Positions 4,590-61,789 are shown, numbered from the stretch's first letter. The stretch: DNA of 64,000 nt from Elusimicrobiota bacterium (GCA_040757695.1 JBFLWK010000004.1:11574-75573), one strand, 5' to 3'. Translations and numbers: made by a program. The notes: generated from the letters alone by a model not told the origin.

Positions 4590-4645
4590 AAGGTAAAAGG
4601 TTAAAGGTTAAAATTTTTATTTTAATTTATACCTTTAACCTCCGA
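4572..4645. repeat. hairpin of AAAGGT(T)AA units at the 3' end of the cyclase gene
   Basis: GGCAGGTAAAAGGTAAAAGGTTAAAGGTTAAAA ... TATACCTTTAACCTCC. The C-terminus VKGR* is encoded by the repeat. Confidence 0.75.
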
Positions 4646-5343: not shown

Positions 5344-5357
5344 TTTTATTAAGATAT

Positions 5358-5431
5358 GCGTCGTTAGCTCAACCGGATAGAGCATTCGGCTACGAACCGA
5401 AAGGTTGTAGGTTCAACTCCTGCACGACGCG
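5358..5431 (+). tRNA. tRNA-Arg(ACG)
   Basis: Acceptor GCGTCGT/ACGACGC, anticodon loop CTACGAA, T-loop GGTTCAACTCC. No encoded CCA. Confidence 0.9.
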
Positions 5432-5432
5432 T

Positions 5433-5686
5433 GCAAGCGGGAAACCGTTAGGTAATAGGTAAGTTTTGCTGAAATTTGTAGGCGTGTTCCGATAAATCGG
5501 AACACGATTTTACGATGATTATCATGCCAAAGGCAGATCCGCCTATGGCGGAAAAATCACCGACTACATATTCTACGAAACTTTAGTTTCGGTTAAAACC
5601 AAGCAACCCGCCACTGAAGTGGCGTAGAATTTTGAATATCTTTTCAGCAAAACTGAACTGTCACGAACCCTTTCCTATTTGCTTGC
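5433..5686. repeat. composite nested palindrome containing four small independent hairpins
   Basis: Outer GCAAGC (5433) / GCTTGC (5681) and inner GTTTTGCTGAAA (5463) / TTTTCAGCAAAAC (5641). Internal hairpins include GTGTTCCGATAAATCGGAACAC, CCGCCTATGGCGG, CGAAACTTTAGTTTCG and CGCCACTGAAGTGGCG. Confidence 0.75.
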
Positions 5687-5732: not shown

Positions 5733-5823
5733 CCACAGATGAACACAGATAACCACAGAATAGATTCCCGACAGAGGCATTCGGGAATGACATTTTTCAG
5801 TGTTTCTGTGTTTCCGTGGTTAA
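5733..5823. repeat. 10-nt-periodic hairpin (CACAGAT units) around a conserved core
   Basis: CCACAGATGAACACAGATAACCACAGAA ... TTCAGTGTTTCTGTGTTTCCGTGGTTAA. Confidence 0.8.
5758..5802 (-). repeat. 45-nt conserved core, inverted copy of 10715-10759
   Basis: Its reverse complement CACTGAAAAATGTCATTCCCGAATGCCTCTGTCGGGAATCTATTC matches 10715-10759 with one mismatch. Confidence 0.9.
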
Positions 5824-6303: not shown

Positions 6304-6821
6304 CAAGAATCTTTTTAATTTTAATTTTTACCTTTTACCTTTTACCTGCCGTTACTACCTGCCTTTATTCTGTTGCGCCTGGCATAGATGTTGGTAATAA
6401 ATCAATAGATTTTTCACTAAAGGTTCTTTCATCAACTGAAACATTTGAATTGTCCAATTATAAAGGCAAAAAATCTGTACTTGTCGTTTTTTTTGCTACT
6501 TGGTGTTCGTATTGTACACAAGAGATTCCGACATTAAACAGGATTTATAATGAATACGGGCATAAAAGGTTGCAAATCGTTGCGATAAATATTCGGGAAA
6601 ACGAAAAAAAGATTGCCAGTTTTGTAAAAAGGAAAAAAATACTCTATCCGATTGCGGTTGATACAAAAGCCGAAGTCGCTGAAAAGTTTAAGGTTTACGG
6701 CATCCCGACCAATATCTTAATCAATACCAGCGGAATAATTGTTTTTCGCGGGAGTGATTTACCAGCCGATAAGGTGATAGAGAAAACTTTGCCAAAACCA
6801 GAGAAAAAGAATAGACGCTGA
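6300..6821 (+). CDS. TlpA/redoxin-family thiol:disulfide oxidoreductase, secreted
   Basis: WCSYC active site and YGIPTNILI. ATGA overlap with the tadA stop. Signal peptide present. Confidence 0.8.
   Translation: MTRIFLILIFTFYLLPAVTTCLYSVAPGIDVGNKSIDFSLKVLSSTETFELSNYKGKKSVLVVFFATWCSYCTQEIPTLNRIYNEYGHKRLQIVAINIRENEKKIASFVKRKKILYPIAVDTKAEVAEKFKVYGIPTNILINTSGIIVFRGSDLPADKVIEKTLPKPEKKNRR
6325..6362 (+). repeat. TTTTACC heptamer tandem inside the signal peptide
   Basis: TTTTTACCTTTTACCTTTTACCTGCCGTTACTACCTGCC encodes FTFYLLPAVTTC. A 20-nt inverted match lies at 4581-4601. Confidence 0.8.
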
Positions 6822-7679: not shown

Positions 7680-8252
7680 ATGAGCGATATTATTGAGATA
7701 AGGTGGCATGGTAGAGGAGGTCAGGGTGCAAAGACCGCGGCGCTTCTTTTTGCCGAGGCAGCACTTGCAACTGGCAAATATGTACAAGGGTTTCCTGAAT
7801 ACGGTCCTGAGCGAATGGGTGCGCCTGTTCAGTCATTTAATCGTTTATCAAACAAGCCCATTACACTTCACTGCGGGATTACAGAGCCGGATTTTGTTGT
7901 TGTGCTTGACCCAACACTTATTAAAACAGTTGATATTACCAGTGGGCTTTCTGAAGATGGTGCGATTATCATCAATACTGAAAAATCAGTTGACGAAATA
8001 AAAAAAGAGTTCAATTTCAGTGGTAAAGTTTTTGTTGTCAATGCGTCAAAAATTGCAAAAGAATGTTTTGGCAAAGAAATCCCCAATACGCCAATGATGG
8101 GTGCGTTAGTTAAGGTTACTGAATTTCTTGATATTGAAAATGTTTTAGAAGATACACGAAAAAAACTTGAAAAAAAATTTTTGCATAAGCCGGAAGTAAT
8201 TGAAGGAAATATAAAATCAATAAGAAGAGCATATGAAGAGGTTAAAGGTTAA
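7680..8252 (+). CDS. porG: pyruvate/2-oxoacid:ferredoxin oxidoreductase gamma subunit
   Basis: IRWHGRGGQGAKTAA motif and operon context. Confidence 0.9.
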   Translation: MSDIIEIRWHGRGGQGAKTAALLFAEAALATGKYVQGFPEYGPERMGAPVQSFNRLSNKPITLHCGITEPDFVVVLDPTLIKTVDITSGLSEDGAIIINTEKSVDEIKKEFNFSGKVFVVNASKIAKECFGKEIPNTPMMGALVKVTEFLDIENVLEDTRKKLEKKFLHKPEVIEGNIKSIRRAYEEVKG

Positions 8253-8274
8253 AGGTTAAAATTAAAAAAATAAA

Positions 8275-10682: not shown

Positions 10683-10855
10683 AGAACCAGATAAACCACT
10701 GAGGCCACAGAATTCACTGAAAAATGTCATTCCCGAATGCCTCTGTCAGGAATCTATTCCGTTTTGCCGACTGTCGTGCCACAGGTCATGCCTGAGGCAG
10801 ATTCGCCGTGGCGAACAGATCCGTCTCTGGCGGGAAGTCGGGTATAAATCTTTTT
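10683..10855. repeat. mosaic of repeat modules between convergent porB and hypE
   Basis: CCACAGAA-type units, the 45-nt core, and an expanded twin-hairpin module (10771-10833). Confidence 0.75.
10715..10759 (+). repeat. 45-nt conserved core, partner of 5758-5802
   Basis: CACTGAAAAATGTCATTCCCGAATGCCTCTGTCAGGAATCTATTC. Contains hairpin ATTCCCGA...TC(A/G)GGAAT. Confidence 0.9.
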
Positions 10856-23002: not shown

Positions 23003-23026
23003 CAATTAGGACAAATGTACTAATTG
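23003..23026. repeat. TTAG-AC AAWT GTACTAA palindrome family, imperfect member
   Basis: CAATTAGGACAAATGTACTAATTG followed by GAAATTTTAGGATTTAGAG. Confidence 0.7.
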
Positions 23027-23155
23027 AAATTTTAGGATTTAGAGTTTGGAATTTGTCTTGCTTCGCCAATGCTCCGTAGGACTATTCTCCGAAGCTTTAG
23101 CGAATGAGAATGTTTGTAATTTGTAATTTGTAATTTGTAGTTATTGGGGGTGTTT

Positions 23156-24808: not shown

Positions 24809-25291
24809 ATGCTGAAGATTGTACTGTTGTTAATAATAAGTTTCAGATTTCAGTGTGGTATGCTTTTTTCTCAGGAAATCAGTATGGAAGACAAAATGAT
24901 TGGCTATACATTAAAGACATTAGCAAAATCATATCTTGCTGCAACTGATATCAATAAGTTGAAAAAAAACAGTATTGATAAACTCATCAAAATAGATAAT
25001 GTAAAATTCCAGAAGCAGTATGCAAAGGTCTATGAAGACCTCAAAAACTTACCTGAGCCGATTAAAGCCAAATATGAAATTACTGCAAAAATGACCCGAA
25101 AACAAGCAATGAGACTTATAGCCCGCATGAATAAGAAAAAACTTTACGAAATAATAGATGCTATTCCACATAAAGTCATTGCTGATAGAGTTAAGCAATC
25201 TATTACCGGTAAAAAAGAAGAAAAAGGCAGTACAACTAAACAACTGAAAGATGTTTGGAATAAAGCAGTAAAAGAGTTAGAAGAAAAATGA
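24809..25291 (+). CDS. secreted hypothetical protein
   Basis: Signal peptide followed by a lysine-rich helical protein. No family recognised. Confidence 0.5.
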   Translation: MLKIVLLLIISFRFQCGMLFSQEISMEDKMIGYTLKTLAKSYLAATDINKLKKNSIDKLIKIDNVKFQKQYAKVYEDLKNLPEPIKAKYEITAKMTRKQAMRLIARMNKKKLYEIIDAIPHKVIADRVKQSITGKKEEKGSTTKQLKDVWNKAVKELEEK

Positions 25292-25312
25292 ATTAGTCCA
25301 ATTGGACTAATT
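25291..25312. repeat. perfect 22-nt palindrome of the TTAGTNC AATT GNACTAA family
   Basis: AATTAGTCCAATTGGACTAATT, starting in the stop codon of the upstream gene. Confidence 0.85.
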
Positions 25313-25374
25313 GAAAATTCAGGATTTAGAATTTGGAGTTTGGGATTTGGAATTTGCCGTTAAAAGGGGGCTAT

Positions 25375-26832: not shown

Positions 26833-26885
26833 TTTTTTTTCTTTGTGAGTAGCACGAATTTTATTTTTGTAGCAATTATAAAAAA

Positions 26886-26967
26886 GGAATTTGCGGAATG
26901 GCGGGTTTTAACCTGCCGTCAATGGAGCAAATTCACACAATAATGTAGCACCCAATTTTAATCGGGT
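26886..26967 (+). ncRNA. candidate structured element: outer stem + variable hairpin + 32-nt conserved core + variable hairpin (partner at 32881-32961)
   Basis: GGAATTTGC...GCAAATTC outer stem, core GTCAATGGAGCAAATTCACACAATAATGTAGC, flanking hairpins GGCGGGTTTTAACCTGCC and ACCCAATTTTAATCGGGT. Confidence 0.45.
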
Positions 26968-27120: not shown

Positions 27121-27144
27121 CAATTAGTACAATTGTACTAATTG
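27121..27144. repeat. perfect 24-nt palindrome of the TTAGTAC AATT GTACTAA family
   Basis: CAATTAGTACAATTGTACTAATTG, 17 nt upstream of the TonB-receptor ATG. Confidence 0.85.
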
Positions 27145-27160
27145 AAAAACGGAGGTTGAG

Positions 27161-32202: not shown

Positions 32203-32883
32203 ATGAAAAAGGAGATTGAATCAACAGGCAGGAATGTAGATGAGGCAATAGAGAACGGACTGAAACAACTCGGGCTGACAAGAGAAGAGGTAGAGATTAA
32301 AATTTTAGATGAAGGCAAATCAGGACTCTTCGGGTTGATGGGTTCGGCACCTTCAAGAGTAAAAATATCCACTAAAATACATCCTGCTGCCGAAAATTCA
32401 AAAGAGAAAGAAAAAACATCAGCAAAAACCGAACCAAAAATATCCACATTGGCAGTTGAGATTCTATCAAAAATGCTTGAATTAGCAGGTTTTGTAGCCA
32501 AAATGTCAACAGAAAACACAGAAGCTGGGCTGGTTTTGAATGTCTCATCTGAAGATAGTGCAATTCTTATTGGCAGGCAGGGGCAAACAATGAAGGCAGT
32601 AGAATATTTGCTGAAACTTATCTTGAGCAAACAAGAAGGCCGGAGTGTAAATATAATGCTCAATATAAATGGTTATCTTGAAAAACGAAATGAAAGAATT
32701 GTTAAGAAAGCGAAAGAACTTGAAGAACAAGTTAAGATGAAATGCGAGCCGATAGAAATCAAACTGCCTGCCAGTGAACGAAAAATAATCCATATAACCT
32801 TAAAAAACAGTGAATTTGTTGAAACAGTATCTGAAGGTGAAGGCGAAGATAGGAAACTTATTATTAGACCAAAAAATAAATGA
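32203..32883 (+). CDS. jag: Jag/KhpB RNA-binding protein (Jag_N, KH, R3H)
   Basis: Jag_N start (GRNVDEAIENGLKQLGL), KH (GRQGQTMKAVEYLL) and R3H region. Conserved position after yidC. Confidence 0.85.
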   Translation: MKKEIESTGRNVDEAIENGLKQLGLTREEVEIKILDEGKSGLFGLMGSAPSRVKISTKIHPAAENSKEKEKTSAKTEPKISTLAVEILSKMLELAGFVAKMSTENTEAGLVLNVSSEDSAILIGRQGQTMKAVEYLLKLILSKQEGRSVNIMLNINGYLEKRNERIVKKAKELEEQVKMKCEPIEIKLPASERKIIHITLKNSEFVETVSEGEGEDRKLIIRPKNK

Positions 32884-32961
32884 ATTTGTGAAATGAGGAA
32901 TTTCAATTCCTTGTCAATGGAGCAAATTCAAACCATAATGTAGCCGAGAATTTATTCTCGG
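32881..32961 (+). ncRNA. candidate structured element filling the jag-mnmE spacer (partner at 26886-26967)
   Basis: TGAATTTG...CAAATTCA outer stem, hairpin AGGAATTTCAATTCCT, core GTCAATGGAGCAAATTCAAACCATAATGTAGC, hairpin CCGAGAATTTATTCTCGG whose last G is the G of the mnmE GTG. Confidence 0.45.
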
Positions 32962-35959: not shown

Positions 35960-36805
35960 ATGAACAAAAACTTTTACCTGTTACTTTATACTTTATACTT
36001 TATACTTTACACTGCTTTTACCGGTTGTTCTATATATCCACGCAGACAAAAATTTTGTAAAGTTATATTTTCAGAAAAACAGATTCCTGTATTAAAAAGT
36101 ATCGCTGTCTGTCCTGTCGCTATCGGGTTCCCTACTGGTGTAGCGACAGAGTTTATACCGCTTGTGAAATCACCATTCGTTATAGAAGATAAATCAAAAA
36201 AATGGTTTAACAATCGTGAAGAGCGAATGATTGTTGACCGCGAAACCGCTGAGAAAACAAGCCGTATAACATCTGAACATCTGTATAACATTTTGCTAAA
36301 AAGGAAAAAATTCGACCGTATTGTTCATCCTGATAGTGTTAAAAATGTTATTATGAGTAAAAAAGTAAATCTTGGCGAGATTAAACAAGCTAAAGAACTA
36401 AACACTACACGGATACTTGAAAAATTGTTTGTTGTTGCTGATAAACTGAAAGTTGATGGTTTAATATTCGGTATAATAAAAAAATGTGAGACAGCCATCA
36501 GTTACAAAACTTTTCGCTCGGATGATAAGAGTGATTTCGGTGAATATAAAAAGAGTATAAATTATTCATACAAATTTCAACTTGAAATTGGTGTTTACAG
36601 CACTTCCGAAAAAAAAATCGTCTGGATTGGAGAAAGCAGAACAACAAAATCTAAAGCTACACCGGAATTAGAACAAAACCTGCTTATCGCTGTCGCAACT
36701 AATAAACTTGACCAATTTTTACAGAGGTATCTTATGGAAAAAATTCTAAAAGAGGAGCCGGAATACCAATGCGTGTTACAAATAGTAAATACATTGCCGT
36801 TTTGA
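35960..36805 (+). CDS. hypothetical lipoprotein
   Basis: Lipobox FTGC at the end of a signal peptide that is encoded by a heptamer tandem. Confidence 0.55.
   Translation: MNKNFYLLLYTLYFILYTAFTGCSIYPRRQKFCKVIFSEKQIPVLKSIAVCPVAIGFPTGVATEFIPLVKSPFVIEDKSKKWFNNREERMIVDRETAEKTSRITSEHLYNILLKRKKFDRIVHPDSVKNVIMSKKVNLGEIKQAKELNTTRILEKLFVVADKLKVDGLIFGIIKKCETAISYKTFRSDDKSDFGEYKKSINYSYKFQLEIGVYSTSEKKIVWIGESRTTKSKATPELEQNLLIAVATNKLDQFLQRYLMEKILKEEPEYQCVLQIVNTLPF
35983..36010 (+). repeat. ACTTTAT heptamer x4 in the lipoprotein signal peptide
   Basis: ACTTTAT x3 + ACTTTAC encodes LYTLYFILYT. Confidence 0.9.
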
Positions 36806-37416
36806 TAATTTGTTTAGTTACAAAAATTTATTGCTGGACTGAAACAATAACCAGTAAAATAATTGTTGTTGACCCCGGACACGGGACAAAAAATTATGAT
36901 GGAAAGATTGTAAATTACGGTTGTAAAAGCCCGTCAGGTTTAAAAGAGATGGATGTGGTTATAGATATCGCAGAGATATTAGGCGAGTTGCTTTTACAAA
37001 GTGGTGCAACAGTATATTTTACAAGAGACAGACAAAACTTCTGGCGAACTGCTGAAACACAGGATGAAGATAATCAAGCTCGTGCAGAATTCGCTAATTC
37101 AAAAAATGCCGATTTGTTTCTGCGTATCCACTGTAACTGGTCACCTGACAAAAAAAAACGCGGCGTCTCTGTTTTGTGGTATAAAGATGACTCAAAAAAA
37201 ATCGCTGAAACCGTCTATCAAGAAATTAAAAAAACAGGTGTAAAAGTTGACGGTATCAAAAAACAGCATCTTGTCGGTTTTGAATTCGCAAAAGTCCCGT
37301 CAATCTTAATAGAATACGGCTATCTATCAAACAAGGAAGACGAAAAACTCTTAAAAGACAAAAAATATCTGCAAAAAGTTTCACAAGCAGTTATCAATGC
37401 TCTAAAAATAAAATAA
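36769..37416 (+). CDS. N-acetylmuramoyl-L-alanine amidase (Amidase_3)
   Basis: VVDPGHG, LFLRIHCN and LIEYGYLSNKEDE motifs. Confidence 0.85.
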   Translation: MRVTNSKYIAVLIICLVTKIYCWTETITSKIIVVDPGHGTKNYDGKIVNYGCKSPSGLKEMDVVIDIAEILGELLLQSGATVYFTRDRQNFWRTAETQDEDNQARAEFANSKNADLFLRIHCNWSPDKKKRGVSVLWYKDDSKKIAETVYQEIKKTGVKVDGIKKQHLVGFEFAKVPSILIEYGYLSNKEDEKLLKDKKYLQKVSQAVINALKIK

Positions 37417-37533
37417 CCGCCACTAAAGTGGCTATGAAAGTTATCAAAAATTATGCGTAGTCATATAGCTTAGATTGGGTTCGTTACATAGTGAGAGAAA
37501 AATGAAATAAAAATAGAAGTTGCTGCTGTGCCT

Positions 37534-37612
37534 CAGATGAACACAGACAGAGTCAACCGCAAAAATCATTTATAATTTTTTATTCTGTGTCTATTTGTGA
37601 AAATCTGCGGTT
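37534..37612. repeat. 10-nt-periodic hairpin (CACAGA units)
   Basis: CAGATGAACACAGACAGAGTCAACCGCA ... TTCTGTGTCTATTTGTGAAAATCTGCGGTT. Confidence 0.75.
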
Positions 37613-37659
37613 ACAAGGTTTTCTTGGATATAATGAAATCAGATTTAAAATAAAAATTT

Positions 37660-37697
37660 ATGTTCACATATCCGGAAAAATTTGATGTGATTGTTGT
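37660..37697 (+). repeat. left 38-bp direct repeat: orphan copy of the mnmG 5' end
   Basis: ATGTTCACATATCCGGAAAAATTTGATGTGATTGTTGT is identical to 41131-41168. The reading frame stops after 16 codons. Confidence 0.95.
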
Positions 37698-37714
37698 TAG
37701 AACTAAATGAAAAA

Positions 37715-39589
37715 ATGAGAAAGATAATTTTAGTTTTTGTAGGGTTAGTATTCATAGTATTATCAGTGCTTTATTCTGTAGACGAAGATTCTACTGTTAA
37801 CCAAAAATCAAGCATAATATATGATAATTTCTGTCTTATATATGAGTTCCATACTGATTATATAAAACTTACTTCCATTGGAGAATTTACATCCAATTAT
37901 TATGATGCATTTCCAGTTATTCCTTGTGGTGGTGGGACTTTTTATTCTACAAAAGATGTTTATGATATTATGATAAGTGAGAACATTAAAGATTGTAATA
38001 TTCGGGAAGGGAAGATAAATTGGCGTGGTGCATCTTATGAAACATTAGATTTTGATTTGATATTTAAGGATACAATTGAACCCGACAAGCGATATTATTA
38101 CATTATTTCAAGGAAGGTAAATAGATTACCACATTTACATAAAAACAGGCCGATAAAAAAAGATGACCCGCTTTGTATGACTTTTAATATTTCTCCTCAA
38201 CTATTTATAAAAAATAACTATAGAATAGTAGCAATTCCTAATGATTCAGAATATAAAGGTGATACAGCATATAGACCAACAGAAATTGTAGATTTGGTAG
38301 GTTGGCGGTTACTTATTTATGATGTTTCACAAATTACAACAAATATCGCTGCTCATCCAACTTTTACAATTCACACCGACTCGCCAGAATTGGATATTTA
38401 TGAAGTTTTCGAAAAGATAACAAATAAAAAAATGGATAGATTAAAAATGGTGGCTGTTACAAATATACCCACATATAATGAATTTATGGAAAATTTTTTT
38501 GGTAATAAGGAAAAAGAAGATAATAAGCAGGAAACAACAGATTATAGTTTTGGAGTAAGCAAGAGTAAAATATTACCAACGAGCGATAAGTTCTTTTTTC
38601 CGCTTGGTATGCTATGGAAAAAAACACTTGTAGACTCTATAGTTGATAGACCTGTGATAAAAGATGGAATAGTTTATTTTGCTTGTAGAGATGAACTTTA
38701 CAAATATGATTTGTATACAGGGGTATGTCATTGGACTTGTTTACTGTCGGATTCTATCTGTACCAGACCTGTAGTTACTAATGAGAAAATATATATTGGC
38801 TGTGCTGATTATAATCTCTATGTAGTTGATAAGCAAAGTGGTACGGTATCTTGGAATTTTACTACAAAGGGTTATGTAAATTCAACACCTGTTGTTTCTA
38901 GAAATAAAATATATTTTTGTTCTTTTGATGGATATTTATACTCAATTGATTCAAGCAGTGGGAATCTACTGTGGAACAAAAAAATTGGTGGATGGCATCT
39001 TGATGATAAAATACTACCATCAGTAGTAATTGATAAAGACATTCTATATTCTTGTAGTGATAATTTTGTTTATGCTGTTGATTGTTATTCAGGAGAAATA
39101 AAGTGGAGATTTAATACAGGAGCAAGAGTTAATTCCTCACCCGCTGTTGGTAAAAATTTGTTATTTGTTGGAAATGACAAAGGACTCTTGTGTGGAATAA
39201 ACAAGAAAACTGGTAAACAAATTTGGCTAGTGCAGTATACAAGTGGAATAATATCAGATATAGTAATCTACGAGAATTTTTTATATTTTATAACCCTAGA
39301 TGGCTACCTCTATTGTATTAAATTGAGCCCTAATGAAAATTTGTGTTATGAATGGTGGAAGTATGAAATAGGTTATGAAATTAACAGAAACATCTCTCCT
39401 GTAGTAAAGTCCAATTGTGTAATAACAGATTCAGAAAAGGGTTTATTATTTATTCATCCTACCCTTGGTAGTCTTCTTTGGCAATATCCCCAAACATCAT
39501 CTTGTTTTTGCACACTTGCAGCTGATGCTCCGTATGTTGTATACGAAAACAATAACAGTATTTGGGTTTTATATTCTGAAAGAGAGTAA
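37715..39589 (+). CDS. membrane-anchored protein: unknown ~300-aa domain + PQQ/BamB-like beta-propeller
   Basis: N-terminal TM MRKIILVFVGLVFIVLSVL. At least five repeats of the type PVV..NKIY....DG.LY.ID..SG...W. Confidence 0.7.
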   Translation: MRKIILVFVGLVFIVLSVLYSVDEDSTVNQKSSIIYDNFCLIYEFHTDYIKLTSIGEFTSNYYDAFPVIPCGGGTFYSTKDVYDIMISENIKDCNIREGKINWRGASYETLDFDLIFKDTIEPDKRYYYIISRKVNRLPHLHKNRPIKKDDPLCMTFNISPQLFIKNNYRIVAIPNDSEYKGDTAYRPTEIVDLVGWRLLIYDVSQITTNIAAHPTFTIHTDSPELDIYEVFEKITNKKMDRLKMVAVTNIPTYNEFMENFFGNKEKEDNKQETTDYSFGVSKSKILPTSDKFFFPLGMLWKKTLVDSIVDRPVIKDGIVYFACRDELYKYDLYTGVCHWTCLLSDSICTRPVVTNEKIYIGCADYNLYVVDKQSGTVSWNFTTKGYVNSTPVVSRNKIYFCSFDGYLYSIDSSSGNLLWNKKIGGWHLDDKILPSVVIDKDILYSCSDNFVYAVDCYSGEIKWRFNTGARVNSSPAVGKNLLFVGNDKGLLCGINKKTGKQIWLVQYTSGIISDIVIYENFLYFITLDGYLYCIKLSPNENLCYEWWKYEIGYEINRNISPVVKSNCVITDSEKGLLFIHPTLGSLLWQYPQTSSCFCTLAADAPYVVYENNNSIWVLYSERE

Positions 39590-39594
39590 TAAAC

Positions 39595-40602
39595 ATGAAC
39601 TGTCCAAAATGTAATTACGAAAATAAAGATGATGCGTTATATTGTGGGTTATGTTATGAAGTTTTGAAGAGAGAAGTTTCTCCTGAAAAAGATAATGCCA
39701 CATTTCGCCAGTCAAAAAAATCATATATATGGGTAATATGGCTATTTTTTATTATTATGACAGCAGGCTATTTACTATTGACACAATGGGCAAGTATAAT
39801 TGAAACCATTACAAAAACACGAATACAAAAAAATATTGCAAGACGAGAAAAAGAACTTATCAGGGAGTTGGAAAAGAGACGACAAGAATTTAATCCATAT
39901 ACAGGTGAAGCCAATATAAATGTTAATCCAGTAACTGTTCTGAATAGTTTCACAAGAGATGAATTTATAAATTTCAGAAAAAACAGAGTTGCAGAGTATT
40001 CATTTCTTAATATATTCCCTAAAGATTATTCTCCACATGATAGCATATTTGGGTCAATAACTTTCGGTGTTGACTGGGTAGAAGGTATTCCATTTTATGT
40101 GTGTAATCCATACTTATTGATTATACTAACCTGCGCAGATCATGCGACACCGATTGCTTATTACTGTAAGAACACTACAAATATCAAAGTTAACTACTCC
40201 AACGGAAAAATTGAAGAAATTTATGAAGGAGAAGAAGCATTAAATTGGTTTAATATATTATATTCATATGATGATAATCCTGGTATTATAGCAATAAGAA
40301 TGGTGAATGCTCGCGATGCACATTTATTATATGCCTGTATTGATAAAGAAAAAACTGTAAATGTTGATTTTAGCTGGAGTGCTTCTCCAAATAATATTAC
40401 CAATTCAATACGCAATACATATGGTTTTTTTCATGTTGGTAAATATGGAAAAAATAATTTTTCACCTGAAGATAATTGCTCGTGGTTAAAATTATCGGCG
40501 AGAAACAAATATACCTGTATATATATCAAATTATACTTAATGAAACTGGTAGATATAAATCAAAAAGAAGATTTTGCATACATTATAAAAATAATTCCCT
40601 GA
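39595..40602 (+). CDS. zinc-ribbon / single-TM protein with unknown ~250-aa C-terminal domain
   Basis: CPKCNYEN...YCGLC zinc ribbon and TM helix YIWVIWLFFIIMTAGYLLL. No family recognised for the rest. Confidence 0.6.
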   Translation: MNCPKCNYENKDDALYCGLCYEVLKREVSPEKDNATFRQSKKSYIWVIWLFFIIMTAGYLLLTQWASIIETITKTRIQKNIARREKELIRELEKRRQEFNPYTGEANINVNPVTVLNSFTRDEFINFRKNRVAEYSFLNIFPKDYSPHDSIFGSITFGVDWVEGIPFYVCNPYLLIILTCADHATPIAYYCKNTTNIKVNYSNGKIEEIYEGEEALNWFNILYSYDDNPGIIAIRMVNARDAHLLYACIDKEKTVNVDFSWSASPNNITNSIRNTYGFFHVGKYGKNNFSPEDNCSWLKLSARNKYTCIYIKLYLMKLVDINQKEDFAYIIKIIP

Positions 40603-40731
40603 AAAACTAAATCTATGAAATACTTGAGATACTTTGGAGATTTATCGTCTGAAAATATTTGATGAAATCATTTTCAGAATCAGTTAAATCTTCATATGAA
40701 TACGAAAACGGTTTAAGTATCAGTTGATATT

Positions 40732-40833
40732 CTACCATAATTTCTTTTCCTCCTTTTTTGGCTGGGGGTGTTCAATAATTCACCCCTGTGCTGTTCAATA
40801 ATTATTGTAGCCAAAAAGGGAAAGAAATGGTAG
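40732..40833. promoter_or_regulatory. inverted repeat carrying divergent SD+ATG pairs and duplicated TGTTCAATAATT boxes
   Basis: CTACCATAATTTCTTTTCCTCCTTTTTTGGCT ... AGCCAAAAAGGGAAAGAAATGGTAG. Boxes at 40769-40780 and 40792-40803. Confidence 0.45.
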
Positions 40834-41130
40834 AAAAAATATCAAGTAACCCAACGGAAATATGTTTTATTCACATATATTTGTTTCTTTGCCTTGTAAC
40901 CAGAAAAGCGTGGGTTAAGTTTGGGAAAGGTTGGGGGTTAAGTTTGTCAAAGAGCTAAAAATAATGATAAAACTTGGTAAAATATGGCAAATCAAATGCT
41001 GATTTCAGGGGTTAAGTCTGCATTTCCGTGTAACATTCTCCGACACTAAAATCAGTATTGAACAGGATTAATTAGATATATTCAGCAATGGTTCTGGGAA
41101 AAAGACGAACTTAGACCATAAAAGAAATAA

Positions 41131-41168
41131 ATGTTCACATATCCGGAAAAATTTGATGTGATTGTTGT
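41131..41168 (+). repeat. right 38-bp direct repeat (functional 5' end of mnmG)
   Basis: Identical to 37660-37697. Confidence 0.95.
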
Positions 41169-42912
41169 AGGTGCAGGGCATGCGGGTTGTGAGGCCGCGT
41201 TGGCTTCTGCACGGGTTGGTAAAAAAACTTTGCTTCTTACAATCAACGCCGATACCGTGGCCCAGATGTCCTGCAATACCGCAATCGGCGGTGTCGCAAA
41301 AGGACAGATTGTCAGAGAGATAGATGCACTCGGCGGTGAAATGGCAAAAAATACTGATAAAACGGGGCTACAATTCCGTATTCTTAATCGTTCAAAAGGT
41401 CCCGCGGTTCAATCACCGCGTGCCCAGTGCGATAAAAAACTGTATCAATTTACAATGAAACATACTGTTGAAAAACAAGAAAATCTTAAACTCATTCAAG
41501 CAGAAGTTGTAGAAATTTTAACTGATGATAACAAGGTAATTGGCATTCTCGCAAAGCCTGGTATAAAATTTTTAGGAAAAATAGTAATCGTTACAACAGG
41601 CACTTTCTTGAAAGGGCTTATACATATAGGCGAGACAACATTTAACGCAGGCAGAAGTGGTGAGTTTGCCGCAATGCAGCTTTCTGATTCCCTGAGAAAA
41701 CTTGGGTTTGAAATAGGGCGTCTTAAAACAGGCACACCACCGAGAGTAAATGGTAAAACAATTGACTATTCAAAATGTATACAGCAACCTGGTGACATTT
41801 CCCCAATACCTTTTTCACATTTCACATCACACATTACACAGAAACAACTACCCTGCTGGCTGACTTATACGAATACCAAAACACACGAAATTATATCAGC
41901 AAATTTTCATCGGGCACCACTTTTCTCAGGACAGATTAAAGGCATAGGACCAAGATACTGTCCGTCTATTGAAGATAAAGTAAAAAAATTTCCAGAAAAA
42001 GAACGACACCAAATTTTCCTTGAGCCGGAGGGGTATAATACTGAAGAGGTATATTGTAACGGACTTGCAACTTCATTGCCATATGATGTTCAATATGAAA
42101 TGCTGAAAACAATCCCCGGACTTGAAAATTGCCAGATGATACGACCGGGTTATGCGATAGAATACGATTTCTGCCCACCTACGCAATTGAAACCGACACT
42201 TGAGACGAAACTTATTGAGAATCTCTTTTTTGCAGGGCAAATAAATGGAACTTCCGGTTACGAGGAAGCAGCAGGACAGGGGGTAGTTGCGGGTATAAAT
42301 GCGGTTGCAAAAATTAAAGGTCTTGAACCACTGATTCTGTGTCGGGATGAAGCGTATATCGGTGTTCTGATAGATGATTTGGTTACAAAAGGTGTGCTTG
42401 ATCCATATAGAATGTTCACTGCTCGTGCAGAGTACCGTCTGCTTTTACGCGCGGATAATGCCGATTTGCGCCTGATAGATTATGGATACAAGTATGGTTT
42501 GGTTAGTGAGGACATTTACAAAAAATTTCAGAAGTATAGGACACTTGTCCTACAAAATTTGTCGTCAGAAATTAGGACATTTGTCCTACAAAATTTGGAA
42601 GATATTTTTCCATGGACAAAAGAAAAAATTGAAGTTGAAATTGAAATCGCCCAAAAATATCAAGGTTACATAAAAAGACAACTCACAGAAGTTGAAAAGT
42701 TCAAAAAAATAGAGACAAAAAAAATTCCACCAAATATCAATTACAACGACATCCCTGGGCTTCTTACAGAAAGCAGACATAAATTAAACCAGATTAGACC
42801 ACTGTCTGTCGGGCAGGCATCAAGAATTTCCGGTGTTACACCGGCTGATATAGGAATTGTTATGGTCTGGCTTGAAAAACAGAAATATGAAAAACCAGCA
42901 AATTATGAATGA
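41131..42912 (+). CDS. mnmG: tRNA uridine 5-carboxymethylaminomethyl modification enzyme MnmG (GidA)
   Basis: [32 protein letters not shown] and [16 protein letters not shown]. Confidence 0.95.
42537..42597 (+). repeat. 25-nt palindrome-containing unit duplicated in frame inside mnmG
   Basis: TAGGACA(C/T)TTGTCCTACAAAATTTG at 42537 and 42573 (36-nt period). Encodes RTLVLQNL...RTFVLQNL. Confidence 0.9.
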
Positions 42913-43225
42913 TTCTGATACGGATACTACGCCGTTAAATGATTTAGATACTGAAGCAGTTCTGACTTTTGTTTCCAAAAACATTTTTGGTTTTAAGAAA
43001 GTGTTCAATTTTTTCAATGTGCATTTTGAATACAAAAACTTATTTTCGCCATCCTCTATTTTCGGCACAAAAAAGAAAGTTCCTTACAGTTCTATCAAGC
43101 AAATAATCTGTTCCAAAAACAATATAAAGATACAACTCTATGATAAAAAACGACCGATTAGAATCTATAATGTTGAAAACATAACTGAAAAAACTCAGAA
43201 CTTAAAAAACCTTACAGGATTTTAA
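42905..43225 (+). CDS. hypothetical protein
   Basis: ATG overlaps the mnmG stop (ATGAATGA). No family recognised. Confidence 0.45.
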
Positions 43226-43227
43226 GT

Positions 43228-45072
43228 ATGCCATTTTTGATTTTTAATTTTACATTTTTGATTTACCTCTATACGATGTATCCGACAATCTCACCGTATC
43301 GGGATAGTGGTGATATGATTGTTTCTGCATTTACTCTCGGGATTGCCCATCCACCCGCCTATCCGTTGTATGTTCTATTAGGTAAAATTTTTACAGTAGT
43401 CATTCCATTTGCGAATATCGCATATCGTGTCAATTTAATGAGTGCATTTTGGGGTGCGTTGACCTGTTCAGTTTTGTATGTAGTAATAAAAAAAATTGGT
43501 GAGCGAATTCTCAATAATAAAAAACAAATCTTAATATCAGGTTCTGTAGTTATTGTATTACTTTTTTGTTTAAGTTCGTCTATGCATTCGTTAAGTATCG
43601 TTTCTGAAATGTATTCGCTGAACGCTTTTTTTGCCGTTTTGATAATTTATTTGATTTCGTTTCTACCTTCTACCTTCTACCTTCTACCTGCCTTTTTGTT
43701 CGGGCTTGCGCTCGGCAACCATCACACGCTTGTGCTTTTGCTTCCCGGAATTATTTATTTGCTGATTATTCGGTTAGGCAAAACCTTTTTACCTTTCACC
43801 TTTTACCTTCTACCTGCCTTTTTGCTGGGTTTTTCTGTATATCTTTTTCTGCCAGTTCGGTCTGCACAGAAACCGACTGCGAACTGGGGTTCGCCTTCTG
43901 GCTCATTAAGAAATTTATACAGGGTTTTAACACGCGCTGATTACGGAAGTATTCGGCTTCATCCTGAGAAAAGTCCAACAGAACAGAATGTTGCTACCAC
44001 AGTTAAAAGTTTCTTTAATTTTTTGAATGTGTTAATACAGCAGTTTGATTACTGGATTATTCCATTTCTGGGATTAGGGATTTATTATTCTGTAAAACAA
44101 AAAGTCTTCTGGCAGTTGGTCCTGCTCTGGTTTTTTTCAGGACCTGTGTTTTTTATAGTTTCCAATTTACCGCTAGAAGAAAAAACATCACTCCCTATAT
44201 TAGAACCGTATCTTATGCTACCGCTACTGATTTTTGGTCTCTGGGTTTGTATTGGATTTTTTTATGCAGTTCGTTATTTTAGTCAATATAAAAATGAAAA
44301 AAAAATATCTTTTTTGATAATTACTGGACTCTTTTTTTTGATACATATAAAATTGCCAAAGTTAAACAAACGGTTTGAATTTATCGGAAACGATTATTCA
44401 ATGGATTTACTCAAAACCTTACCGCCATATTCCGTTTTGTTTAATCCCGACGATACAACAACATTTACGCTGAGATATCAGCAGGAATGTCTTGGGAAAC
44501 GAAAAGATATTTCGCTTGCTGTTTTTTACAAAACCTTTTGGGGCTATCAACAACTTAAAGAAAAAAAACCGGAGATTTTACCTGACTACGAAATAAAATC
44601 CGGGATAGAACTTGAAAACATTCTTGTCTCGTATAATTATTATCGGCTACCATTCTTTTCTGATAATATCTCAAAAATTCCAACGGCTTACAAAACCATA
44701 CCCACAGGATTGCTTTACGGGAATAAAGAGATTTTTGAAGAGATGTTTGACTTTTATATTTTACCGCCGAGAACTTCCGGTAAAAGAAGATTTTTTACCA
44801 ACCAGATAATAAACTACTATTCTGCTGGTTTCAACAATTTAGGGCTTGTATTTAACGAAAAAAAGTTATATAATAAAAGTATTCGGCTCTTTGAAAATGC
44901 TGTTACAATAGACCCGACACTTTCACAAGGCTGGAATAATTTGGGTGTCGCATACTGGCAGAAAGGTGATTATCAGAAAGCTGCCGAGTATTTTGAGATT
45001 GCGTTAAAATATGCGCCTGATGATGAAGAGTTAAAAAAGAATTTTTTGCTCGCTAAAGAAAAAATAAAATGA
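43228..45072 (+). CDS. DUF2723-family polytopic membrane protein (putative glycosyltransferase) with C-terminal TPR repeats
   Basis: TISPYRDSGDMIVSAFTLGIAHPPAYPLYVLLGKIF N-terminus, more than 10 TM helices and TPR (GWNNLGVAYWQKGDYQKAAEYFEIALKYAPDD). Confidence 0.75.
   Translation: MPFLIFNFTFLIYLYTMYPTISPYRDSGDMIVSAFTLGIAHPPAYPLYVLLGKIFTVVIPFANIAYRVNLMSAFWGALTCSVLYVVIKKIGERILNNKKQILISGSVVIVLLFCLSSSMHSLSIVSEMYSLNAFFAVLIIYLISFLPSTFYLLPAFLFGLALGNHHTLVLLLPGIIYLLIIRLGKTFLPFTFYLLPAFLLGFSVYLFLPVRSAQKPTANWGSPSGSLRNLYRVLTRADYGSIRLHPEKSPTEQNVATTVKSFFNFLNVLIQQFDYWIIPFLGLGIYYSVKQKVFWQLVLLWFFSGPVFFIVSNLPLEEKTSLPILEPYLMLPLLIFGLWVCIGFFYAVRYFSQYKNEKKISFLIITGLFFLIHIKLPKLNKRFEFIGNDYSMDLLKTLPPYSVLFNPDDTTTFTLRYQQECLGKRKDISLAVFYKTFWGYQQLKEKKPEILPDYEIKSGIELENILVSYNYYRLPFFSDNISKIPTAYKTIPTGLLYGNKEIFEEMFDFYILPPRTSGKRRFFTNQIINYYSAGFNNLGLVFNEKKLYNKSIRLFENAVTIDPTLSQGWNNLGVAYWQKGDYQKAAEYFEIALKYAPDDEELKKNFLLAKEKIK
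43663..43824 (+). repeat. two blocks of CTACCTT heptamer tandems ending in a shared 19-mer
   Basis: CCTTCTACCTGCCTTTTTG at 43680-43698 and 43806-43824. Both are translated as (S/F)TFYLLPAFL.G. Confidence 0.9.
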
Positions 45073-51926: not shown

Positions 51927-51951
51927 CAAATAGCATTACTTTTTGTATATT
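51923..51951 (+). promoter_or_regulatory. consensus promoter placed for a leaderless transcript of the AAA ATPase gene
   Basis: TTGACA (overlaps the hdrA stop), 17-nt spacer, TATATT. ATG 51958 lies 6 nt after the -10. Confidence 0.5.
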
Positions 51952-51957
51952 AATAAT

Positions 51958-53139
51958 ATGCTTTTAGAAAGAAAACTTTACAGACCGATACAAGCTTATA
52001 TAGATTCAAAAGAAGCAATAATTATCACTGGTATGCGGAGAACCGGGAAAACCTCATTACTCCGTTTTATTTACGAACGGATATCTTCATCAAATAAAAT
52101 TTTTTTGGATTTAGAAAATCCGCTGAATCAGAAATATTTTGAAGAGACAAATTACGAGAGGATAAAATCAACCCTTGAATTTTTGGGTTTGAATTTTACG
52201 CAAAAAGCGTATCTCTTTTTAGATGAAATTCAGCTGGTGAAGAATCTCCCCCGAGTGGTGAAATATCTGATTGACCATTATAAAATAAAATGTTTTCTGA
52301 CTGGTTCGGCAAGTTTTTATTTAAAAAATTTATTTACCGAATCGCTTGTGGGAAGAAAATATATCTTTGAACTTTTCCCGTTAGATTTTGAAGAATTCTT
52401 ATTGTTTAAAAATAGCAAAATCAAACTTCCCGACAGAAAAAGTAGAATTACTCGCCCCATTTTTGATACAATCTCAAATTTGTATGATGAATATATTTAT
52501 TATGGTGGTTTCCCAGAAGTTGTCTTAAAAACAAATTTTGAGGAAAAGAAAAAATCATTAGAAGACATTTTTACTTCTTACTTCCAATTAGAAGTCCTCA
52601 GATTGGGAGATTTCAGAAAGAATGAAGTTATTCGTGATTTAATCCTCCTTTTGATGGAAAGAGTTGGTTGGAAACTGGACATTAATAAAATTTCGTCCGA
52701 GTTAGGTATTTCAAGGATTACAGTTATGCAGTATATTTCATTTTTAGAAGGGACTTATTTTATTAAACTGGTGAAACCATTTTCCAGAAACCGAGATACA
52801 GAAATTAGAAAGATGCCTAAAGTATATTCTTGTGACTCTGGATTAGTTAACCATTTTTCTAAAATAAGCGAAGGGAATTTATTTGAAAGCAGTATATTTC
52901 AGAATTTGCGGATGCGTGGAGAGATAAATTATTATCAGAAAAAAAGTGGAGTTGAGATAGATTTTATCTTAAATAAAGAAATAGGTATTGAAGTTAAAAT
53001 AAAGCCGACCGAAAATGATGTCAGAAGATTAGAGAAAATAAGTAAAAAAATAAGGTTAAAGAAGTTTAAAATTTTTACCAGGAATTATCCTTCAAATTTA
53101 GATAAAATGAAAAATGTAGAATTCGGTTTCTTCATTTAG
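51958..53139 (+). CDS. AAA-family ATPase with DUF4143-type C-terminal domain
   Basis: ITGMRRTGKTS Walker A and LFLDEIQ Walker B. This architecture is typical of the AAA_14/DUF4143 family. Confidence 0.8.
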   Translation: MLLERKLYRPIQAYIDSKEAIIITGMRRTGKTSLLRFIYERISSSNKIFLDLENPLNQKYFEETNYERIKSTLEFLGLNFTQKAYLFLDEIQLVKNLPRVVKYLIDHYKIKCFLTGSASFYLKNLFTESLVGRKYIFELFPLDFEEFLLFKNSKIKLPDRKSRITRPIFDTISNLYDEYIYYGGFPEVVLKTNFEEKKKSLEDIFTSYFQLEVLRLGDFRKNEVIRDLILLLMERVGWKLDINKISSELGISRITVMQYISFLEGTYFIKLVKPFSRNRDTEIRKMPKVYSCDSGLVNHFSKISEGNLFESSIFQNLRMRGEINYYQKKSGVEIDFILNKEIGIEVKIKPTENDVRRLEKISKKIRLKKFKIFTRNYPSNLDKMKNVEFGFFI

Positions 53140-54356: not shown

Positions 54357-54674
54357 TTGTATACCTCATTACAAGAATATGGTTATATCCTGATCTTTAA
54401 ACCAACTTTATTCCTGCCAAATGGCAAAGTGAAAGGTAATATAGATGCGGAGTTAGTACTTCATACAATGATAGAGTATCCCAATTATGATAAAGCAGTT
54501 ATCGTAACCGGAGATGGAGATTTTCACTGTTTAATTGAATATCTCAAAAGACATAATAAATTGGGAAAAATTATCGTTCCAAATCGGTATAGATTTTCTT
54601 CACTTCTTAGGAAATTTGCTCCTCAAGATATGGTTTTTATGAATGGATTGAAAGCCAAGTTGGAATATAAATAA
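54357..54674 (+). pseudogene. N-terminally truncated NYN/LabA-like (DUF88) gene remnant
   Basis: KGNIDAELVLHTM...DKAVIVTGDGDFHCLIEYLK matches the C-terminal two thirds of NYN/LabA. The first catalytic-Asp region is absent and only a TTG start is available. Confidence 0.55.
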
Positions 54675-56472: not shown

Positions 56473-56583
56473 GATGCTGTTGAAAAAGTCCTACAAGCCG
56501 TCATTGTAAGACTTAATAGAGTTTGCTGTTTCGGATTTGGAATTTGGAATTTGAAATTTGCCGTTAAAAGGGGGTGAGAAACA

Positions 56584-61187: not shown

Positions 61188-61400
61188 GTGAAAGAAAAAG
61201 GATTGAAATGGCTTTCAAAAAATGAGAAAAAAATTGAAAAATATTCTGGGAAATGGATTGCTTTTGTCACAAACAAGGGAATTCTTTCTAGCGGAGAAAC
61301 AGTAAAAGAAGTTATAGATATAGCGGAAAAAAAATATTGTATATCAAACCCTTTTGTTTTTAAAGTCCCACGAAAAGATGAAGAGATGTATATTTTATGA
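61188..61400 (+). CDS. DUF5678-like small protein
   Basis: KYSGKWIAFVTNKGILSSGETVKEVIDIAEKKY. GTG start after AAGGAGG. Confidence 0.55.
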   Translation: MKEKGLKWLSKNEKKIEKYSGKWIAFVTNKGILSSGETVKEVIDIAEKKYCISNPFVFKVPRKDEEMYIL

Positions 61401-61789
61401 AATATAAATATCCTTATTTAAAATTTAGAAATCAATTTTACCCGTTGGTTCCTTTAAAAATCTGTAGTGGAAAAAGATATGTTAATACTTTTGCTCTGGT
61501 TGATTCTGGTGCTTCAATTTGTCTGTTTAAACCTGAAATAGCAAATCATCTCGGGATTGAAGTAGAAGAAGGCGAGGAAATTTTATTAGAAGGGATAAGT
61601 GGAAAAATAAGCATCTATTTACATAAAGTTACAATTCAGATAGGGATAGACAAATTTGATGCAACTGTTGGATTTTCAGAGGAGTATACAGCAAGTTTCA
61701 ATCTAATTGGCAGAAAAGATTTTTTTGATAGGTTTATAATATCTTTTAATGAGAAAAATAAAAAACTTGAACTTTTAAATGTAAAATAA
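61397..61789 (+). CDS. retropepsin-like (clan AA) aspartic protease
   Basis: ALVDSGAS active-site motif, ~130 aa, 4-nt overlap with the upstream gene. Confidence 0.7.
   Translation: MKYKYPYLKFRNQFYPLVPLKICSGKRYVNTFALVDSGASICLFKPEIANHLGIEVEEGEEILLEGISGKISIYLHKVTIQIGIDKFDATVGFSEEYTASFNLIGRKDFFDRFIISFNEKNKKLELLNVK

Follow-up and report, generated by a model that had tools for sequence, protein, structure and literature searches.

The start of the housekeeping gene mnmG occurs twice in a 64,000-nt stretch of DNA from an Elusimicrobiota bacterium (GCA_040757695.1 JBFLWK010000004.1:11574-75573), with an island of two genes between the copies, which raises the question of what this island is and how it could have been placed there. 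We refer to the whole 64,000-nt stretch as the window, count positions from its first letter, and call each copy of the mnmG 5′ end R. Comparison with about 20 related Elusimicrobiota loci (labels L###), found with the window proteins as probes, places the island in a hotspot at which small gene cassettes, mostly separated by copies of R, lie between a conserved amidase gene and mnmG. We lean, by a modest measure, towards a reading in which site-specific recombination at a shared core, in codons 3-8 of mnmG, moves the non-autonomous cassettes and the recombinase responsible is encoded elsewhere.

Two copies of the mnmG start bound an island

Positions 37660-37697 and 41131-41168 of the window are identical 38-mers, both on the + strand. 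The right copy (attR-like, recognised from sequence and Pfam) is the true start of the target gene mnmG (gidA; 41131-42912, +), which is intact (Pfam GIDA, E 1e-173, plus the C-terminal domain) and whose product is 80-83% identical to MnmG of metagenome-assembled genomes (MAGs) of uncultured Elusimicrobiota from groundwater and sediment. The left copy (attL-like, recognised from sequence and the R profile) is an orphan of the first 38 nt of mnmG. It holds the common core TATCCGGAAAAATTT at 37669-37683 (+), delimited by comparison of 21 R copies, and opens a reading frame of 16 codons (37660-37710, +) that stops at TGA (37708-37710); the ATG of the first gene in the cassette follows 5 nt later, and translational coupling of this frame, the old mnmG initiation region, to that gene is possible. 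The initial annotation had described a perfect 38-bp direct repeat with exactly these two roles, and sequence, shuffles and Pfam bear it out. A third copy of the 38-mer is absent from the 64 kb with up to 3 mismatches allowed (0 expected from 100 shuffles), and a profile of all R copies run on the window returns just the two known ones. Upstream of both 38-mers, weak A/T-rich similarity continues for about 11 nt further (49 nt at 92%).

The left flank of the hotspot is a conserved N-acetylmuramoyl-L-alanine amidase gene (36769-37416, +; Pfam Amidase_3, E 7e-41). Between it and the left R lies a 243-nt spacer (37417-37659, +; 100% identical in Logan contig L001) with TATAAT at 37629-37634, which presumably preceded mnmG in the original arrangement and which has no homolog in the other fetched loci. 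The surrounding gene content, rnpA-yidC-jag-mnmE...mnmG-rsmG, corresponds to a cluster that is origin-proximal in many bacteria, and nearly all window genes are on the + strand. Within mnmG itself there is a 36-nt tandem duplication (42537-42597), which brings the window MnmG to 593 aa, compared with 584-586 aa in close relatives.

The same site is empty or differently filled in related species

In five outgroup species (L008, L009, L010, L015 and L098) the site is empty, with the amidase gene adjoining mnmG at a distance of 3-84 nt, shorter than the window's 243-nt spacer; the initial annotation had proposed a search of relatives for such empty sites, and it succeeded. In about nine species of the window's clade the site is filled, with 0.7-8.4 kb inserted as one to five cassettes whose content differs each time. 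An MnmG tree groups the filled genomes, without exception, in a single clade in which the window is basal, and places the empty ones outside it as outgroups. All empty sites belong to outgroup species, and the members of the window's clade are all filled or rearranged, as in L004, a clade member with mnmG in a rearranged context that lacks an array.

Written from the amidase gene towards mnmG, with a slash for a cassette boundary, R for a full copy of the site and R′ for a degenerate one, L003 reads hyp402 / R / Wzy-TPR (680 aa) / R / DUF1016 nuclease / R′ / TPR of 657 aa (TPR657) / R / AbiEi-AbiEii / R-mnmG, and L016 reads YARHG / R / AbiE / R / DUF1016 / R′ / methyltransferase (MT224) / R-mnmG. 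The other arrays are Wzy / R / AbiE / R-mnmG (L007), hyp426 / R / AbiE / R-mnmG (L096), hyp546 / R′ / AbiE / R-mnmG (L099), Wzy / R-mnmG (L094, L095) and a UDG-like three-gene unit / R-mnmG (L085, L097, L083); L006, L084 and L086, on contigs that begin within the array, read ... / R / AbiE / R-mnmG. The AbiE and DUF1016 cassettes occupy different array positions (L003, L016, L007, L096, L099), with neighbours that differ between species. Units are 0.7-3.5 kb long and filled almost wholly by cargo, and all cargo genes lie on the mnmG strand, which nearly all window genes share anyway. Internal cassette boundaries carry R and the boundary by the amidase gene is usually without it; among the filled loci, only the window has the 243-nt spacer together with an intact left R. 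A second fixed junction at the amidase 3′ end, of the attI type, was considered and rejected, as the amidase tails vary without a common breakpoint.

Relatives within the clade hold different genes at the same spot, mostly bounded by further R copies, so the island is not an ancient shared rearrangement, the alternative against which the initial annotation had set a discrete element. The proposal that it is an insertion that regenerated the 5′ end of its target is also supported, but not as a stand-alone element: the island is one unit of a multi-cassette hotspot. No recombinase was found in any array (Pfam scans, with precomputed Pfam for the L094-L099 genes), no integrase or recognisable fragment of one occurs in more than ten cassette types from about nine species, and the five metagenome loci with R are all integrase-free arrays. 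Since no array holds a recombinase, the earlier wording, non-autonomous and mobilised by something not recognisable here, is still the best description.

Two other features belong to filled loci. The UDG-like three-gene unit lies between the amidase gene and mnmG without a left R (L085 1263-3388; L097 5041-7166; L083 256-2332, minus strand) and encodes a UDG-superfamily protein of 244 aa and two proteins without a family match, the middle gene being split in L083; it may be an undescribed defence module, though it gave no PADLOC match. Downstream of the site, an open reading frame (ORF) of about 100 aa between mnmG and a TMEM260-like gene (42905-43225 in the window), conserved at 52-54% identity, is present in every filled-clade locus that reaches past mnmG and absent in the empty-site loci L008, L010, L015 and L098. 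Weighed as an accessory factor, it had no Pfam match, and its single-sequence model was unusable (predicted local distance difference test, pLDDT, 55).

R is a short module with a conserved centre

When four AbiE cassettes are aligned, the DNA to the left of the ATG of R is unrelated and that from the ATG onward is homologous; on the right, where two cassettes are followed by different units, their homology runs to about position 34 of R and no further. These limits define R as a discrete module of about 34 nt that starts at the mnmG start codon. The 38-bp repeat, taken in the initial annotation as the bounding site, is perfect in the window, but the site shared among genomes is this shorter module with an invariant core of 16 nt. 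The core, TATCCKGAAAAATTT (W TATCC K GAAAAATTT), spans codons 3-8 of mnmG and is kept intact even where the flanks have decayed: in the four degenerate R copies, mismatches number 24/72 in the flanks and 1/64 in the centre (Fisher p 7e-7).

Copies of R are hybrids: in each, the left part belongs to the cassette upstream and the right part to the one downstream. Behind the DUF1016 cassette, R has the same aberrant left end in L003 and L016 (CCCGGTAC and TTCGGCAC, against the usual ATGTTCAC), although different cassettes follow it in the two loci. The right half tracks the downstream cassette, with GCGRT-tgat before DUF1016, GTAGT-cgca before Wzy and TPR657, two related cassettes, and -aaaa before AbiE. 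Judged by sequence comparison, hybrid copies with a preserved centre are the pattern expected of attachment (att) sites that share a short common core and recombine inside it. An R variant lacking the ATG occurs at internal array positions only, and every R attached to mnmG is intact, which fits a need for the adjoining cassette to rebuild the gene start.

The inverted pair TCACAT-N15-ATGTGA is present in nearly all filled genomes; it is lacking in four of the five empty-site genomes (L008, L009, L010 and L015), and L098 is without the left arm only. R folds into a 6-bp stem at best, with a free energy (dG) of -2.5 to -2.8 kcal/mol and z of -0.3 to -0.5 on both strands.

Some cassettes are more alike between species than their flanks

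Nucleotide identity between species is 0.88-0.94 for the AbiE cassette and 0.90 for the DUF1016 cassette, compared with 0.84-0.91 for mnmG, 0.81-0.89 for the amidase gene and 0.78-0.86 for the TMEM260-like gene. Because these cassettes are more alike between species than the flanking genes are, the comparison suggests that AbiE and DUF1016 are younger than their hosts and spread after the species split. The Wzy gene, at 0.79-0.80, looks vertically inherited. By analogy with the AbiE and DUF1016 cassettes, the island in the window would itself be mobile.

Content and composition of the window island

The first cassette gene (37715-39589, +) starts at the ATG at 37715 and not at a TTG inside the repeat, and encodes a protein of 624 aa with an N-terminal membrane anchor, a homolog-free region of about 300 aa and a PQQ/BamB-type beta-propeller (Pfam PQQ_2, E 9e-34; Beta-prop_ACSF4, E 3e-37). 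A search of 5.8 billion proteins returned no close homolog, the best match being 24-30% identical over the propeller half only. The second gene (39595-40602, +) encodes a zinc-ribbon membrane protein of 335 aa, with weak zinc-ribbon Pfam matches, in which an N-terminal zinc ribbon and a long transmembrane helix precede a conserved alpha/beta domain without an assigned function. Its AlphaFold model (pLDDT 85.5) has no fold match in the PDB at E<=0.001, and PADLOC gave no match for either island protein. From their sequences, the cargo would be two envelope-type membrane proteins whose role is unassigned.

Homologs of the zinc-ribbon protein are 52-57% identical, and in both cases whose context was read (P0004, P0005) the gene belongs to an ordinary queF / zinc-ribbon / acid-phosphatase locus; one of these homologs is from the L015 genome, whose mnmG site is empty. 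The zinc-ribbon cargo appears to derive from an ordinary chromosomal gene, as a copy that has since diverged. A more distant homolog (42%) follows NHL/beta-propeller and PorV-like genes near TraG-like transfer genes at about 1-3240 of L091-L093, and the first gene of the L099 array encodes a membrane protein with propeller-type repeats; the association of propeller and zinc-ribbon proteins may be recurrent.

Behind the two genes lies a non-coding tail of 528 bp (40603-41130, +) without a long ORF, which ends in the A-rich leader that now precedes mnmG. It contains a very stable, imperfect hairpin of 120 nt (40724-40845, +; dG -43.8 kcal/mol, z -6.0) that is unlike an intrinsic terminator because no T run follows it, and that has no copies elsewhere in the fetched loci. 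The motif GGGTTAAGTYTG occurs three times in the tail (40912, 40935 and 41009) and nowhere else in the window, a number of copies reached in 4 of 100 shuffles. No fetched locus contains a homolog of the tail, and Rfam assigns it no family at gathering score; three weak matches to eukaryotic snoRNA or miRNA families (E 0.28-0.89) were taken as chance. A consensus promoter scan, which is weak evidence, shows no promoter-like site on the + strand at 40279-41216, a range that includes the last 850 nt before mnmG. An R-like stretch after the zinc-ribbon gene (40649-40664), considered as a third, degenerate copy, is not significant against the R profile (E 7.7), and the island is for this reason counted as one cassette.

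The island genes have a GC content of 0.30-0.31 (0.308 for the first) and a third-position value (GC3) of 0.21, the window gene means being 0.362 (s.d. 0.039) and 0.300 (s.d. 0.046). They rank fourth and fifth lowest in GC among the 59 window genes, so that their AT-richness is real but moderate. The initial annotation had placed two AT-rich genes and about 0.5 kb of non-coding DNA between the repeats, without integrase, transposase or relaxase; the composition agrees with this, and Pfam recognises none of the three in the island proteins. No recombinase was recognised elsewhere in the window either, where Pfam covered selected ORFs and the remaining translations were inspected by eye only.

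Proposed mechanism and alternative explanations

In the reading that we favour, a circular cassette with one R would recombine with an R already in place, either the one at mnmG or an orphan copy within an array, and the crossover would fall, as it does between attP and attB, inside the 16-nt common core. The left part carried by the cassette (ATGTTCAC...) would then rebuild the MnmG start codon and N-terminus, and similarity that starts exactly at the ATG would follow from this. After insertion, the cassette genes would sit between the old upstream region of mnmG and mnmG itself, and they would probably be co-transcribed with it. The gene for the hypothetical recombinase would lie at another place in the genome or on a different element; the arrangement TCACAT-N15-ATGTGA and the 34-nt size of R suggest a tyrosine recombinase.

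Several observations weigh against this reading. Its simple form predicts an R at the left of every array, and of 9 filled species, 8 have no R to the left of the first gene after the amidase gene. A deletion common to L007 and L094 took away the left R there, but repeated loss is not parsimonious. The filled species are related, so the counts are not counts of independent events, and the cassette with the propeller and zinc-ribbon genes was found in no other genome. No recombinase was recognised in the arrays or in the window, and two patterns for R gave 0 matches on viral contigs; neither a free or circular form nor an empty site in the same species was seen. Within R, polymorphic positions 9 and 15 segregate cleanly with neither neighbour, which leaves the crossover point bounded but not mapped, and the arms of the putative site are only weakly symmetric (6/13). 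Hybrid sites would, finally, arise by homologous recombination within R too.

As short direct repeats, R copies could recombine without a dedicated enzyme, by RecA or by slippage or annealing that does not need RecA, so that cassettes are looped out and re-inserted or whole arrays are exchanged through the amidase and mnmG flanks. No recombinase was found near the arrays, homologous crossovers are also expected to yield hybrid R copies, and the 34-38 bp of R are about the shortest length that RecA-dependent exchange requires. A precedent is the microcin H47 island of E. coli, which has direct-repeat flanks and no recombinase gene and is excised independently of RecA (PMC3191183, PMC5426353). 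Such shuffling leaves unexplained how unrelated cassettes each gained an R with the same sharp limits, from the ATG to about +34. Moreover, the partners at the DUF1016/TPR657 and DUF1016/MT224 junctions share just the centre of about 16 nt, too short for efficient exchange, and this centre is kept (1/64 mismatches) while the flanks decay (24/72). We consider shuffling by homology alone unlikely, and an immobile leftover of an integrative element (for instance a small genomic island or a prophage) whose integrase has been lost is to our mind distinctly improbable. Integrative elements classically leave behind direct repeats that regenerate the target, degradation of element DNA could have produced the 528-bp tail with its hairpin and triple motif, and tycheposon islands show successive integrations with degenerate remnants and scattered partial copies of the target (10.1101/2020.12.28.424599). 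Against such a remnant, none of more than ten cassette types in about nine species keeps an integrase or a fragment of one, the units are small (0.7-3.5 kb) and nearly all cargo, and the tail is similar to nothing fetched.

The island could also be an artefact, if the assembler had threaded into the chromosome a 3.47-kb circle that shares 38 bp with mnmG. Logan contigs of run SRR29635779 are 100% identical to the window and break exactly at the repeat, L001 ending 30 nt into the left R and L002 spanning 37668-41160. Such a break is expected of a k=31 graph at a 38-bp repeat, and this graph fits an integrated island and an empty site plus circle equally. The same architecture, however, recurs in independent assemblies of about nine related species, made with long k-mers that read through 38 bp (MEGAHIT k141 and k87; SPAdes NODE contigs), and the repeat is shorter than ordinary 150-nt reads; a circular island would, in any case, still be the predicted excised form of the same system. 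We regard an artefact as very improbable. Target-site duplication by a transposon was rejected, as no transposase was recognised and no terminal inverted repeat was seen beside R, and because the orphan R variants are shared between species and travel with cassettes instead of being copied from the recipient.

Other features of the window

Two inverted pairs near a tRNA-Arg gene (5357-5432) are hairpin-containing repeat elements. One, of 48 nt and 96% complementary (5755-5802 and 10715-10762), flanks 4.9 kb that run from a deaminase-like gene through pyruvate:ferredoxin oxidoreductase-like subunits just after the tRNA gene; the other, of 45 nt (2692-2736 and 5518-5562), brackets the tRNA gene. 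The palindrome CAATTAGTACAATTGTACTAATTG is intergenic at 23003-23029, 25290-25316 and 27121-27147 and occurs also in L016 (8000-8023), where the AbiE cassette precedes it and the next R follows; it seems to be a lineage-wide element of the repetitive extragenic palindrome (REP) or terminator type. A 79-nt repeat, 73% identical between its copies (26880-26958 and 32875-32953) and containing TTGTCA-N17-CATAAT, is probably a shared promoter module, the second copy lying directly upstream of mnmE.

Heptamer tandem repeats of the GGAATTT and GGTAAAA types are found at 25325-25370, 56515-56574, 4577-4612, 6318-6361 and 8236-8263, apparently mostly in intergenic DNA. The TMEM260-like glycosyltransferase gene has an internal duplication (43660-43829) that repeats a TFYLLPAF segment in CTTCTAC-rich DNA. 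Other unusually AT-rich, accessory-looking genes encode an AAA_14/DUF4143 ATPase (51943-53139), an NYN-domain fragment (54357-54674) and an aspartyl-protease-like ORF (61397-61789).

Implications

Taken further, the first 34 nt of mnmG might serve as the universal recombination site of an undescribed cassette-capture platform in a clade of Elusimicrobiota, integron-like in function and dependent on a core defined by its sequence within coding DNA and on an unlinked recombinase, possibly new or host-encoded; we offer this wider proposal tentatively, as a possibility that we would not call probable. If it were true, defence and envelope genes would be stacked, shuffled and co-expressed behind one housekeeping promoter, and the platform could recruit ordinary chromosomal genes, as is suggested by the zinc-ribbon gene, with its queF locus read in two relatives. 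Uncultured Elusimicrobiota of groundwater and sediment would gain a compact, sequence-addressable site of gene exchange.

The hotspot concentrates defence genes (AbiE, the DUF1016/PDC-S02 candidate, the UDG-like trio and a methyltransferase) and envelope genes before a core gene. With a 16-nt core, units of 0.7-3.5 kb and clear empty and filled states, it is tractable for questions about the recombinase and about the origin and spread of cassettes without one. The site is also a marker of strain-level variation in MAGs, and its 38-bp repeats will fragment assemblies made with short k.

Comparison with known systems

In the literature searched, neither integration at mnmG nor arrays of this kind in Elusimicrobia are described, and the closest parallels come from several classes of element. 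Integrons and CALINs (clusters of attC sites lacking integron-integrase) resemble the arrays in their tandem, co-oriented cassettes, mostly of one or two genes, each delimited by a recombination site, in a cassette order that differs between genomes, in boundary sites that are hybrids of their neighbours and in toxin-antitoxin and accessory cargo; CALINs are similar also in having no adjacent integrase (PMC4889954). In contrast to integrons, no intI, attI or Pc was identified here, every array is flanked on its left by the amidase gene, and its other end falls within a gene that needs rebuilding. The attC sites, imperfect palindromes 57-141 nt long, fold in single-stranded form, and it is their structure that is conserved and not their sequence, whereas R is a fixed 34-nt sequence, conserved as such, from the 5′ coding end of a housekeeping gene; an attC-like folded site was rejected, as R does not fold (dG -2.5 kcal/mol, z -0.3).

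Cis-mobilizable elements (CIMEs; PMC5704250, PMC6323972), tycheposons (10.1101/2020.12.28.424599) and SGI1, which uses the 3′ end of trmE/thdF and forms tandem arrays (PMC2297512), share with the present system direct repeats that are a conserved gene end and a target that is regenerated. In them, too, each new insertion moves the older units further from the target, copies of the target lie scattered as orphan or degenerate sequences, units are without integrase, and the cargo includes defence genes. These elements use a tRNA gene or a 3′ end, whereas the site described here is the 5′ end of a protein gene including its start codon, the units are very small (0.7-3.5 kb) and the phylum is Elusimicrobiota; no integrase-bearing partner element, as in CIME-type systems, was seen in the arrays of about nine species, in the R-bearing metagenome loci or among the viral contigs covered. 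The cassettes have the att-like flanks of a CIME, with neither recombination nor transfer genes recognised; of the features of an autonomous element, they have the target-regenerating direct repeats, but no integrase of their own was recognised.

Integrative mobile elements exploiting Xer (IMEX) insert at dif without a recombinase of their own, regenerate the site and pile up in tandem. The cassettes are similar in being recombinase-less elements that stack in tandem at one regenerated chromosomal site, but R, whose neighbours are origin-proximal genes in many bacteria, is not at the terminus, and its limits, from the ATG to +34, do not fit the 11-6-11 layout of dif. A dif mimic was judged unlikely, since the partial match to a XerD arm, TTATGTTCAC, occurs at the left copy only and falls beyond the limits of homology that define R. 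The microcin H47 island is likewise small, flanked by short direct repeats and mobile despite the absence of a recombinase gene; it is a single island in one species, without a multi-cassette array, sharing across species or rebuilding of a target. By analogy with these systems, the mnmG hotspot is best likened to an integron in its layout and to att sites in its putative mechanism.

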